From a virus (lineage: Duplodnaviria; Heunggongvirae; Uroviricota; Caudoviricetes), in the IMG/VR virus record IMGVR_UViG_3300045988_142641: a stretch of 35,258 nt of DNA. One strand, 5' to 3'. Every line of letters begins with the position of its first letter. Position 1 is the first letter of the stretch. The position numbers and the translations under genes are program-made. Below, piece by piece: positions 25,751 through 27,879 of the stretch. A model generated the notes under the pieces. The model searched no databases. It was not told the DNA's origin and was given only the letters and a program-made list of their open reading frames with translations.

Positions 25751-26818
25751 TCATTTCTTAGCTTTCACAACCGGATGCGCGCGATCATGTCCACCGCCAC
25801 GATGCTTAGAAAATATAACCTTTTCATTAGTAAAAGGTTTTTGGCCATAGACACTATCATAGTGGAAAAAGACGTTCGGAAGATGAGGCACACGGATGAA
25901 TCCATACTTCACTCTAGTATCACCGATGACCCCAAAAACCCTTGTACTTACTGGGTAGCATAGTTCACCACAACGCATCACTAATTCATCTGCTGTTGGG
26001 CGTTCAGAAGGTTCCAATTTTAAACAATCTTCTATAAGTTTAATTATTTCATTTGCCAATGGCGCATACTGTCTATTTGAAAATATAAAGTCAGGGTAAG
26101 GAACATGCGTGCCAGAAAGTATATTTGGTATAGCCATATAACCAATACCAAAAGGGTATTTTCCAGTAAGAATCCTGAACATCATCGCACCCAATGCCCA
26201 AATATCTGTAGGTTTCGAAACCTTACCTTGACTCTGTATGATTTCCGGTGCCATATATGGCAAAGCCCCGATAGCCGTTTGCGAAGAACTAATTGAATCT
26301 TGACCATTTCTTGCAGCCTCATCAATTTCATCTCCGGCCATCTTTGAAATGCCGAAATCCGTAATTTTTATCTCTGTAGCATTGATACCACCGCCTACCA
26401 TTATATTTGAAGGTTTGAGGTCCCGGTGTATGACGTCAACATGATGCGAAGCAGACAGAGCTTTAGCTAAATTATGAAATATTTTAGCAGTTAAATATGG
26501 ATCAACACTTGAATAAGTGTCTAAAATAGCCTTATCCAAGTCAACTCCATCAATAAATTCCTCCGTTAAAAACTCTCTACCCTCATCATCAATGAAGTAA
26601 TCTAAGGTTTTAGCCACATTAGGATGATTAACTCTTGATGCTAATATTGCACTTCTATGAAACCTTTTTTCAGCAGATTTATTTTTGGGAGTTTTGAGAG
26701 CCACATGCCTCGAGAGAATATTATCCATTGCCAAATAAACTTTTTGCATACCGCCTTCACCAATCTCCCTCAATATTGTATATCTGCTAACTTGAATGCC
26801 TGGAGTCAGATTTATCAT
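25751..26818 (-). CDS. Hanks-type Ser/Thr protein kinase (355 aa), cargo
   Basis: G-loop GEGGMQKV, VALK lysine, catalytic loop HRDLKPSN, DFG, APE and DIWALG all present; SD GGAGG 7 nt upstream; ATGA overlap with the upstream kinase; ~60-aa C-terminal extension. Confidence 0.85.
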   Translation of the reverse strand: MINLTPGIQVSRYTILREIGEGGMQKVYLAMDNILSRHVALKTPKNKSAEKRFHRSAILASRVNHPNVAKTLDYFIDDEGREFLTEEFIDGVDLDKAILDTYSSVDPYLTAKIFHNLAKALSASHHVDVIHRDLKPSNIMVGGGINATEIKITDFGISKMAGDEIDEAARNGQDSISSSQTAIGALPYMAPEIIQSQGKVSKPTDIWALGAMMFRILTGKYPFGIGYMAIPNILSGTHVPYPDFIFSNRQYAPLANEIIKLIEDCLKLEPSERPTADELVMRCGELCYPVSTRVFGVIGDTRVKYGFIRVPHLPNVFFHYDSVYGQKPFTNEKVIFSKHRGGGHDRAHPVVKAKK

Positions 26819-27879
26819 AACACCACCTCCGGATGGGAAAGGTCAAATGTAATGAAGACCCGCTCTTTTCTTGGCCGAGAAGACTCTCCCAGAATAATAA
26901 CACATGAATCAGGCAAAATATTATATTGCTTTGCAGCTATATTATTCACATACACCTCACCACTTAAACTCGATATATAAAACTCTGAACCAGTATATTT
27001 CACCTCAATAGTCCCGACCCCTGAATTATTAAAAGCCGCAGATTTATTTGTTGAAGAAATGATGACGGGAGGAGTGTTATCAGAGATTAACAATGCTCTA
27101 TGAGAGTTGTAGAGAACGAATTTTTTTAGAGTCTGACACACATCAGCCATATCAGGTCTCTCACAAGGATTCGTATCTAAACATTGGAAAAGCAATTCTT
27201 TTACCTGAGTTGGTAACTGTATATTAGAATTATCAAAAGGATTAGACAATAATTTTTTTGGTAAAACTCTCATTTCCGGTGGTAGTGGGGTCTTAGCCAA
27301 AAACATGGCCGTTACAGCAAAAGCATATGTATCTATGGATTTTGTAAACGCTACTTGATGTAAAAATAATTCAGGTGCAGCATATGTTGGGGTTCCTTTA
27401 AAACCTATTGTATTAGCTTCATCAACATTTCTAGATAGTCCGAAGTCATAAATTTTCACTACTCCCTCAGAATCAATTTTCATGTTCCCAGGCTTGATAT
27501 CCCTATGAATAATATCATGAGAATGTATCTCAGAAATACCCGAAGATATTTGCCACAAAATTTTAATCAGATCTTCAGAATTTAATATGCGATCCTCTAT
27601 TTCCAATAATGAAGGTCCGTCAACATACTCTTCGACTATAGCAATTCCTTTACCTTGATAATTAATAACATCATAAAGCTCTACTACATGTTTTGATCTT
27701 AATTTCATCAATGCTGATAACTCATCCATCATTCGAGGAGAATCATCAGGATTACTTATGGACTTTATAGCGACAAATCTTTCGAGGTGAGTATCCAAGC
27801 ATTTGATCACGCAACCAAATCCTCCCGAAGCCTCTTCTTCAGTCCTCTTATATCTTGCAGGGAGAGTAAAATTAGTCAT
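26815..27879 (-). CDS. Hanks-type Ser/Thr protein kinase (354 aa), cargo
   Basis: G-loop GGFGCV, VAIK, HRDIKPGN, DFG, APE; SD AAGGAG 6 nt upstream; 8-nt overlap with the phosphatase stop; ~100-aa non-kinase C-terminal domain. Confidence 0.85.
   Translation of the reverse strand: MTNFTLPARYKRTEEEASGGFGCVIKCLDTHLERFVAIKSISNPDDSPRMMDELSALMKLRSKHVVELYDVINYQGKGIAIVEEYVDGPSLLEIEDRILNSEDLIKILWQISSGISEIHSHDIIHRDIKPGNMKIDSEGVVKIYDFGLSRNVDEANTIGFKGTPTYAAPELFLHQVAFTKSIDTYAFAVTAMFLAKTPLPPEMRVLPKKLLSNPFDNSNIQLPTQVKELLFQCLDTNPCERPDMADVCQTLKKFVLYNSHRALLISDNTPPVIISSTNKSAAFNNSGVGTIEVKYTGSEFYISSLSGEVYVNNIAAKQYNILPDSCVIILGESSRPRKERVFITFDLSHPEVVL

Follow-up and report, generated by a model that had tools for sequence, protein, structure and literature searches.

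The three co-oriented genes at positions 25751-29038 of the window, the whole 35,258-nt stretch of DNA that was analysed, form in our reading a kinase-kinase-phosphatase (KKP) module with PfpC-like, PfkB-like and PfkA-like components, in which the C-terminal tails of the two kinases serve as assembly or targeting modules (probability about 0.8). The type KKP system is PfpC-PfkB-PfkA of prophage Pf6 in P. aeruginosa MPAO1 (Guo et al., Nat Commun 2024, PMC11341870; preprint 10.1101/2022.09.05.506569), and homologues are reported in P2, P4 and Mu-like prophages (PMC11341870). The domain layout of the tails, the truncation experiment and the occurrence in E. coli P2 prophages are all contained in it (PMC11341870). 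The layout described here is correct but not new, as it is already published for this prophage toxin-antitoxin and anti-phage module, and the locus is a known defence system that offers no new lead. The genes and domains of the cassette are as follows.

27872..29038, minus strand: PfpC-like PP2C Ser/Thr phosphatase, 388 aa (Pfam PP2C_2, NCBIfam Stp1, phrog_17277)
28235..28927, minus strand: PP2C catalytic domain, phosphatase residues about 38-268 (NCBIfam NF033484)
26815..27879, minus strand: PfkB-like Ser/Thr kinase, 354 aa; it starts 8 nt before the phosphatase gene ends (ATGACTAA)
26836..27102, minus strand: FHA-like beta-sandwich domain, residues about 260-348 of the 354-aa kinase
26818..26847, minus strand: FDxSxPE motif ending exactly three residues before the C-terminus (FDLSHPEVVL, residues 345-354 of the 354-aa kinase)
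25751..26818, minus strand: PfkA-like Ser/Thr kinase, 355 aa; it starts (ATG) 4 nt before the 354-aa kinase gene ends (ATGA)
25763..25945, minus strand: cold-shock (CSD/OB-fold) domain, residues about 292-352 of the 355-aa kinase
25666..25694, minus strand: intrinsic-terminator-like hairpin, GCCCTCCAG..CTGGAGGGC then TTTTT (terminator scan and sequence read)

The genes follow one another in the order PP2C phosphatase (1167 bp), 354-aa kinase (1065 bp) and 355-aa kinase (1068 bp), and the overlaps of 8 nt and 4 nt were read in the sequence at the two junctions; the three genes are a translationally coupled operon. Both kinase reading frames are present as the first-pass annotation had claimed, and the region it treated, 25751-27130, comprises the whole 355-aa gene and the tail-coding part of the 354-aa gene. 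The phosphatase starts with GTG and has the Shine-Dalgarno sequence GAGGAGG; databases also hold a 358-aa form starting at Met31. The phosphatase matched Pfam PP2C_2 (PF13672) with an E value of 4.7e-6 (26.7 bits, above the cutoff of 24), the NCBIfam Stp1 PP2C model NF033484 with 1.5e-29 (residues 38-268 on profile positions 2-231 of 232), and phrog_17277 over its full length with 3.5e-193. The terminator-like hairpin, located about 60 nt 3′ of the stop codon of the 355-aa kinase gene, is the probable end of the operon. A promoter scan of 29039-29259 returned no minus-strand sigma-70 consensus match upstream of the phosphatase; a weak TTGCCG-16-TATAGC was seen upstream of it by eye only. Vibrio likewise has the PP2C-kinase-kinase order with a 4-nt overlap between the kinase genes, adjoining integrases, and Caballeronia has two kinases with a 4-nt overlap downstream of a 398-aa gene without a Pfam match.

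The 354-aa kinase matched Pfam Pkinase (PF00069) over residues 18-249 (E 1.7e-42) and the 355-aa kinase over residues 13-280 (E 5.9e-45), both alignments extending to profile position 258-259 of 263. The motifs VAIK, HRDIKPGN, DFG and APE were read in the translation of the former, and GEGGMQKV, VALK, HRDLKPSN, DFG and APE in that of the latter; both kinases have VAxK, HRD, DFG and APE, as do 117-120 of the 120 listed homologues per family. Alignment to solved kinases ended at residue 263 of the 354-aa protein (MST3) and residue 278 of the 355-aa protein (Aurora A). Compared with each other, the two kinases are 28% identical up to the 'ERP' of subdomain XI and unrelated beyond it. These comparisons bear out the earlier claim that the kinase domain stops at about residue 255-290 with tails beyond: the kinase fold runs to about residue 250 of the 354-aa protein and about residue 285 of the 355-aa protein, leaving about 100 aa and about 65-70 aa, respectively, outside it.

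The first-pass annotation had described these tails as non-catalytic extensions with different appended domains, had proposed structure prediction and domain searches on the isolated tails as checks, and had named as the contrary case that they are simply the C-lobe of the kinase. When each tail was modelled alone in AlphaFold2, the pLDDT was 94.7 for the 354-aa tail and 92.9 for the 355-aa tail, with all five models at 89 or above, and the models resembled FHA and CSD structures rather than kinases. Across the 120 listed homologues per family, protein length is uniform (347-365 aa) and the tails contain invariant residues. As the tails are conserved and their models confident in isolation, the C-lobe case fails. 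Each modelled tail does begin with a helix of 10-13 residues that extends kinase subdomain XI (RPxAxEL...), but past that helix each tail alone is an all-beta domain with a pLDDT above 90, and the Pfam and solved-kinase alignments end ahead of these domains; that the tails are the mere end of the C-lobe, lacking an independent domain, is next to impossible. By the predicted structures, the tails are autonomous folded domains conserved as fixed-length kinase fusions, and both parts of the earlier description held, the appended domains being an FHA-like beta-sandwich in the 354-aa protein and a cold-shock domain in the 355-aa protein.

The model of the 354-aa tail is an eleven-strand beta-sandwich with the SMAD/FHA-type fold, for which Foldseek never returned an E value better than 9.5e-3 (TM about 0.5). 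In Pfam at E values up to 10, PF00498, the FHA family profile with its GR, SxxH and NG signature, matched none of 65 family tails, nor the isolated 354-aa tail, nor the published FHA construct of PfkB_MP, and the tail profile found no FHA among PDB sequences at E values up to 10. With hhalign, the tail profile gave a probability of 0.25% against the FHA domain of GarA; as a positive control, the single GarA FHA sequence recovered other FHA domains at 1e-7 to 1e-11. Sequence-level FHA membership was rejected on these PF00498, PDB and GarA results and fold-level membership was kept. The FHA label thus holds at the fold level only, the type protein included, which weakens mechanistic arguments resting on phosphothreonine recognition between the kinases. 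A match of the tail profile to ribosomal protein S19 among PDB sequences (E 0.42) was discarded as chance.

Set against canonical FHA domains (PF00498; Rad53 FHA1, M. tuberculosis GarA, FhaA, Chk2), the tail has no sequence-level relationship, has about 12-14 residues fewer between strands 3 and 5, and appears to lack the GR and SxxH loops, as judged from predicted strands mapped on the FHA topology, not from residue-level superposition. In our strand mapping none of the invariant tail residues (H16, Y51, N68, N69, V83, G87, R96, D102, S104 and P106) seems to correspond to GR or SxxH. The domain may have lost the canonical phosphothreonine-binding loops and act as a plain protein-protein interface. 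The tail family comprises 281 clusters among 1.84 billion, lies at the extreme C-terminus in all 150 matches listed, and is private to PfkB-type kinases. FDxSxPE stands exactly three residues from the C-terminus in 120 of the 120 listed homologues, with D, S and P invariant (tail D102, S104 and P106), and is also found in PfkB of the type system (...ITFDLSHPEINL). This motif with its three-residue spacing, which is not discussed in the available portion of PMC11341870, is a cheap target for mutagenesis.

The cold-shock domain of the 355-aa kinase carries an RNP1-like YGFI at residues 305-308 (KYGFI in context) and an RNP2-like VFFHY at residues 316-320, and its model has five strands in a predicted OB barrel. 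The usual forms of these motifs in cold-shock domains are K-G-F-G-F-I for RNP1 and V-F-V-H-F for RNP2. The tail profile matched solved CSDs at 5.7e-9, and RNP1 and RNP2 were in register; in the alignment with CspB, YGFI paired with YGFI and DVFFH with DVFVH, and the family profile scored 39 bits against Unr. Pfam CSD (PF00313) matched 47 of 50 family tails at E values up to 1 (best 3.6e-9); the window's own tail scored 17.5-17.7 bits, below the cutoff of 27. Compared with the cold-shock domains of CspA, CspB, Unr/CSDE1, Lin28 and CRHSP-24 (PF00313), this one is fused C-terminally to a protein kinase, a fusion that Guo et al. report in prokaryotes only and mostly inside KKP modules (PMC11341870). 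It also ends in a conserved 'GGGxxRAHPV' strand atypical for Csp proteins, and the CSD of KKP is reported to bind the FHA-like domain of the partner kinase (PMC11341870). From its motifs, the intact RNP1/RNP2 face could be either the interface with the FHA-like domain or a binder of single-stranded nucleic acid.

Both kinases aligned with their counterparts in the type system with the tails included, the 355-aa kinase with PfkA_MP (52% identity over 344 aa, E 1e-120) and the 354-aa kinase with PfkB_MP (44% identity over 354 aa, E 2e-85); the PfkA_MP and PfkB_MP sequences came from the supplement as OCR text and contain a few errors. At the sequence level, both tails are orthologous to those of the experimentally studied PfkB and PfkA. 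In the methods of Guo et al., a KKP is defined by three adjacent co-oriented PP2C-kinase-kinase genes of 900-1300 bp each, and the cassette agrees with this in gene order and size (1167, 1065 and 1068 bp). Their further features are also found here: PF13672 or COG0631 in the first gene, PF00069 with HRD and DFG in both kinases, a C-terminal CSD with a GFI/GFA motif in the last kinase, and location in a prophage or mobile element, in this case a P2-like prophage. The C-terminal FHA domain of the middle kinase is present at the fold level, not by PF00498. The supplement contained no primer matching the gene ends of the window and no PfpC, PfkA or PfkB sequence of KKP_EC039, and GenBank MCM8848563-65, the KKP_EC039 proteins of E. 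coli 15EC039, did not appear among the accessions listed for the cassette clusters, four per member.

Experiments on orthologues bear on how the tails are used. Neither kinase alone is toxic or phosphorylates targets, and autophosphorylation requires both (PMC11341870). The isolated FHA and CSD domains co-purify, His-FHA pulls down CSD-Flag, and C-terminal truncation or mutation of the GFI motif of the CSD abolishes the joint toxicity of the kinases (PMC11341870). KKPs found in prophages of E. coli, Salmonella, Shewanella and Vibrio defend against T4 and the T-odd phages, and PfpC is both antitoxin and trigger sensor: the trigger T4 Gp59, tested on an E. coli KKP, binds and inhibits PfpC and not a kinase tail, though the authors call the inhibition in vitro modest (PMC11341870). 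Because both kinases are needed, FHA and CSD co-purify, truncation or GFI mutation removes toxicity, and Gp59 acts on the phosphatase, the tails here are best read, by analogy, as modules that assemble or target a single, obligately two-kinase toxin rather than as primary trigger sensors. In such a system the FHA-like domain would bind the CSD and kinase domain would bind kinase domain to give one obligate hetero-kinase, which would be toxic by phosphorylating many essential host proteins in replication, translation and cell division. The phosphatase would be the antitoxin that continuously undoes this phosphorylation, until a phage protein such as T4 Gp59 inhibits it; the kinases thereby unleashed would arrest the infected cell ahead of phage production. 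As its nucleic-acid-binding motifs are intact, the CSD may have an additional sensing role.

The first-pass annotation had proposed two inputs or substrates or a kinase cascade for the paired kinases, and of this the two differing independent domains stood, whereas two sensors or a linear cascade fit poorly with the data on KKP orthologues. If the tails were separate sensors, single-stranded DNA or RNA of the phage would be the signal for the CSD and a phosphorylated protein the signal for the FHA-like domain, and kinase activation would integrate both. CspB binds nucleic acid through aromatic residues of RNP1 and RNP2, and these residues are indeed kept in the CSD (YGFI and VFFHY) and in about 119 of the 120 listed homologues, and mutation of GFI in the orthologue abolished both toxicity and defence (PMC11341870), but FHA/CSD co-purification accounts for the latter phenotype with no recourse to nucleic acid. 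Moreover, the two orthologous kinases are already toxic when co-expressed in cells that have met no phage, so that an extra input is unnecessary for activity, and the sole trigger identified acts on the phosphatase (PMC11341870). With an FHA-like domain that shows no detectable phosphothreonine-binding signature, we consider the sensor reading doubtful, if with some chance of being right. About the same modest chance is given to a combined proposal, in which the 'FHA' of PfkB-type kinases would be a private, degenerate FHA fold without GR and SxxH loops that reads no phosphothreonine; its role would be to clamp the partner CSD independently of phosphorylation, aided by FDxSxPE and its three trailing residues, and the RNP1/RNP2 face of the CSD would offer phage single-stranded nucleic acid a second trigger route beside phosphatase inhibition.

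A linear cascade, in which one kinase activates the other, the second alone acts on substrates and the FHA-like domain docks on the phosphorylated partner, would agree with the phosphosites mapped on both orthologues, which were seen only when both kinases were present (PMC11341870). However, toxicity remained intact when HRD or DFG was mutated in either single kinase and was lost only in double mutants (PMC11341870), and a strict cascade is disfavoured because its terminal kinase would be indispensable. In our alignment, S266 and D324 of the window kinase stand where PfkB_MP has its phosphosites T261 and T319, on variable columns of the family, and no canonical FHA signature for docking is detectable. 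The cascade is decidedly improbable, more so than the sensor reading, and the two-kinase toxin assembled through the tails is preferred to both.

The setting of the cassette in the window is defined by the following features.

24400-25434: portal gene
25604..25622, minus strand: putative cos, GGCGAGGCGGGGAAAGCAC (sequence read)
29260-31587: gene A, matching Phage_GPA at 1.4e-122

The prophage genes of the window include terminase, portal, capsid, tail-fibre, gene A and integrase genes. As GGCGAGGCGGGGAAAGCAC at 25604..25622 is presumably the 19-nt cohesive end of P2, the cassette lies between cos and gene A, at the 'tin/old' accessory locus of P2. P2 itself carries the exclusion genes tin and old there. 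With a GC content of 0.35-0.38 between flanks of 0.55, the cassette forms a low-GC island, and the 60 bp flanking it match Peduovirus P2 and relatives at 93-97%. In the phage genome collection searched, the cassette was absent from phage records and only the 60-bp P2 flank was matched. Of 5426 complete E. coli genomes, 14 carry the cassette but more than 2000 have the P2-type sequence that flanks it; the cassette is dispensable for the prophage. In our reading a P2-like prophage carries it as accessory cargo in the cos-to-gene-A hotspot. Its main role might instead be lysogeny control of the prophage or a satellite through phosphorylation of an H-NS-family silencer, as in Pf4/Pf6, with defence secondary, and E. 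coli does have H-NS and StpA; occupation of the locus that holds exclusion genes in P2, and dispensability for the prophage, speak against this. The type system regulates Pf virion production via MvaU phosphorylation and its authors propose inter-prophage roles elsewhere, but KKPs of non-filamentous E. coli and Salmonella prophages protected E. coli K-12 against phage when moved into it (PMC11341870). Lysogeny control as the main role is accordingly judged unlikely, somewhat less so than the cascade.

Among other anti-phage defences, Stk2 of Staphylococcus, PD-T4-6, MAD6, PglW and MkoA share a Hanks-type Ser/Thr kinase with the cassette but have neither its paired second kinase nor its PP2C antitoxin. 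The PADLOC mad6 and PD-T4-6 profiles matched both window kinases at 1e-30 to 1e-54, in the kinase domain only and with the tails excluded (the mad6 match, for one, pairs residues 7-292 with positions 47-319 of a 659-position profile). As only the kinase core matched and the context is a PP2C phosphatase and a second kinase, not MADS or a single gene, membership in PD-T4-6 or MAD6 was rejected, and an automated PADLOC-style 'PD-T4-6' call on this cassette would be a mislabel. KKP is not named in PADLOC v2 or NCBIfam, where only generic kinase, mad6 and PD-T4-6 matches are obtained, and RefSeq gives 'serine/threonine-protein kinase'; such cassettes will go on turning up as 'new' or under the wrong label PD-T4-6. 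From the MPAO1 KKP the cassette differs in host and prophage (E. coli and a P2-like myovirus against P. aeruginosa and a filamentous Pf), in the PfkB phosphosites T261 and T319, which are not conserved, and in RNP2 (VFFHY against VFFNQ in PfkA_MP). KKP modules have been reported in P2 prophages beside Phage_GPA and Phage_portal genes, and the location adjoining gene A and the portal gene is common to the window and the prophage KKPs in Fig. 3g of Guo et al. (PMC11341870). With the MPAO1 KKP the cassette shares gene order and sizes, a PP2C gene followed by two Hanks-type kinases, an FHA-like tail on the first kinase and a CSD tail on the second, the GFI motif (residues 306-308 here and 307-309 in PfkA_MP), and the ...ITFDLSHPExxL ending of the PfkB-type kinase.

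The region 25751-27130, in which the first-pass annotation had described two kinases with non-catalytic C-terminal extensions, forms part of a three-gene cassette:

25751-26818, minus strand: ORF of a 355-aa kinase (PfkA-like), wholly within that region
26815-27879, minus strand: ORF of a 354-aa kinase (PfkB-like), only its 3′ part within that region
27872-29038, minus strand: PP2C phosphatase, 388 aa, upstream of both kinases on the same strand

The phosphatase stop overlaps the start of the 354-aa kinase by 8 nt, a 4-nt overlap joins the two kinase genes, and a terminator-like hairpin lies 3′ of the last gene (355-aa kinase). 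According to Guo et al. 2024 (PMC11341870), the kinase-kinase-phosphatase (KKP) module consists of PfpC (PP2C), PfkB (kinase and FHA) and PfkA (kinase and cold-shock domain, CSD, with a GFI/GFA motif) in this order, and the more than 1200 KKP clusters reported there come largely from P2, P4, Mu-like and Pf prophages, with E. coli among the hosts. The type-system PfkA and PfkB sequences (P. aeruginosa prophage Pf6) were taken from its supplement. The 355-aa kinase showed 52% identity to PfkA (E 1e-120) over the full length through the tail, with the GFI motif at residues 306-308 versus 307-309 in PfkA, and the 354-aa kinase showed 44% identity to PfkB (E 2e-85), likewise through the tail to the ...ITFDLSHPExxL end. 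Every sequence-testable hallmark of KKP membership was found, and the locus is identified as a KKP module with high confidence.

The Pfam Pkinase match, spanning the profile nearly to its end, covered residues 13-280 of the 355-aa kinase and 18-249 of the 354-aa kinase; alignments to solved kinases ended at residue 278 (Aurora A) and residue 263 (MST3), respectively, with about 65-70 and about 100 residues lying past the kinase fold. Identity between the two kinases (28%) was confined to the region up to 'ERP' of kinase subdomain XI. These extents agree with the first-pass annotation. The 120 homologues listed per kinase were near constant in length (347-365 aa), their alignments spanned 96-100% of the query and took in the tails, and both tails had invariant positions; the C-terminal extensions are real and no chance feature. 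Structure prediction, which the first-pass annotation had proposed as a check, was applied to each tail singly (residues 245-354 of the 354-aa kinase and 275-355 of the 355-aa kinase, each aligned to full-length homologues), and returned confident, separate all-beta domains, with mean pLDDT of 94.7 and 92.9, respectively, and at least 89 in all five models. In each model, the all-beta domain is predicted to follow a short helix extending the kinase C-lobe.

The family profile of the 355-aa kinase tail matched the solved CSDs of Unr (5.7e-9) and CspB (1.1e-5), with RNP1 (YGFI) and RNP2 (DVFFH) lining up. PF00313 was matched by 47 of 50 family tails; the window protein by itself scored 17.7 bits, below the 27-bit threshold. 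Because these nucleic-acid-binding motifs are intact, the CSD may have a sensing role, judging from sequence.

Two features were located in the tail of the 354-aa kinase:

26836-27102, minus strand: FHA-like domain, the region against which the published PF00498 label was set
26818-26847, minus strand: FDxSxPE and exactly three residues, the C-terminal end of the protein

Foldseek gave FHA as a weak match for the tail model, with a best E of 9.5e-3 and a TM of about 0.5. With E values allowed up to 10, Pfam FHA matched none of the 65 family tails, the tail family profile found no FHA among PDB sequences, and hhalign against GarA, a canonical FHA protein, gave a probability of 0.25%; as a control, the lone GarA FHA sequence picked up further FHA domains with E values of 1e-7 to 1e-11. 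The profile retrieved only 281 clusters from 1.84 billion representative proteins, and the 150 matches listed were all in proteins no longer than 370 aa, with the FHA-like domain at the very C-terminal end. Given this fold-level likeness without sequence signal and this narrow range, the tail represents a divergent FHA-fold family private to these kinases. Mapping of predicted strands onto the FHA topology, rather than a computed superposition, points to a tight turn in place of strand 4 and both loops bearing GR and SxxH. Current Pfam did not reproduce the PF00498 label of PfkB, even on the 98-aa FHA construct of the type protein, and the published FHA assignment is backed by fold comparison only, a caution that extends to all members of the family. 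FDxSxPE and exactly three residues end all 120 listed PfkB-type homologues and the type protein, with D, S and P invariant, which suggests a putative docking peptide or phospho-acceptor at the extreme C-terminus; the passages of PMC11341870 covered make no mention of this motif.

The phosphatase also carries a C-terminal extension, about 120 aa past the catalytic domain (residues about 269-388; 27875-28234, minus strand), whose second half is K/N/S/D-rich and low-complexity in appearance. As phrog_17277 spans the full length of the protein, the extension is conserved among phage copies.

The cassette forms a low-GC island (0.35-0.38 versus about 0.55 in the flanks) within a P2-like prophage; gene A (Phage_GPA, 1.4e-122) lies on one side of it, the portal and terminase genes on the other. 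One further element adjoins it:

25604-25622: 19-mer GGCGAGGCGGGGAAAGCAC, which we take to be the P2 cos (cohesive) end

The cos-to-gene-A accessory locus of P2 carries tin and old; given the presumed cos identity of the 19-mer, the cassette would therefore occupy this locus. A second low-GC island (7000-11100; GC 0.35-0.40), flanked by a tail-sheath-like gene and tail-fibre genes, presumably corresponds to the P2 Z/fun accessory locus. Its ORFs, and a further ORF elsewhere in the prophage, are as follows:

7286-8155, plus strand: 289 aa
8646-9785, minus strand: 379 aa; phrog_12525 (unknown function), 6.7e-139
10112-11056, plus strand: 314 aa
32621-33121, minus strand: 166 aa, near the integrase end

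Neither Pfam nor PADLOC matched any of the three island ORFs or the 166-aa ORF, and the island is a candidate for uncharacterised prophage cargo.

Of 5426 complete E. coli genomes, 14 carried the cassette at 99.6% identity or more, with generic annotation only; none of the deposited phage genomes searched contained it. Vibrio keeps the PP2C-kinase-kinase order, the 4-nt kinase-gene overlap and adjoining integrases; Caballeronia keeps the kinase pair with its 4-nt overlap, preceded by a 398-aa gene without a Pfam match. Database look-up over 25751-29038 gave exact-sequence contig counts of 694 (355-aa kinase), 105 (354-aa kinase) and 76 (phosphatase). Among the matches listed, the next nearest clusters stood at 83% for the PfkA-like kinase and at 94, 89, 88 and 75% for the PfkB-like kinase, and the closest relatives listed held more allelic variants in the PfkB-like kinase and phosphatase than in the PfkA-like kinase.

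Experiments on orthologues (PMC11341870) found a single kinase harmless, and both together phosphorylated many essential proteins and arrested growth. PfpC undoes this effect, and the module is thus a type VII-like tripartite toxin-antitoxin system. For toxicity, the C-terminal domains of both kinases and the GFI motif are needed, and FHA and CSD co-purify as isolated domains. Prophage KKPs of E. coli, Salmonella, Shewanella and Vibrio shield E. coli from T4 and T-odd phages, and T4 Gp59 binds and inhibits PfpC. By analogy with these orthologues, the window tails would serve as modules for assembly or targeting within a single hetero-kinase, and the phosphatase would be the trigger sensor. The first-pass annotation was thus right in part: the domains are genuine, non-catalytic and distinct from each other, with a role in targeting. 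Its proposal of a cascade, or of two different inputs or substrates, is not supported by the published genetics, since single kinase-dead mutants are still toxic and neither kinase shows activity by itself.

PADLOC v2 mad6 and many PD-T4-6 variant profiles matched both kinases (25751-27879, minus strand) at 1e-30 to 1e-54, over the kinase core only. As PADLOC v2 holds no KKP model and NCBIfam no KKP-specific one, mislabelling as PD-T4-6 or MAD6 is invited, and automated defence annotation is likely to miss KKP cassettes or mislabel them in this way. Both the KKP system and its arrangement of domains have been described before (PMC11341870), as has the truncation test proposed by the first-pass annotation. 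To that description the present analysis makes small additions: this gap in annotation models, the fold-only nature of the 'FHA', its confinement to the PfkB-type kinase family, and the invariant C-terminal motif.
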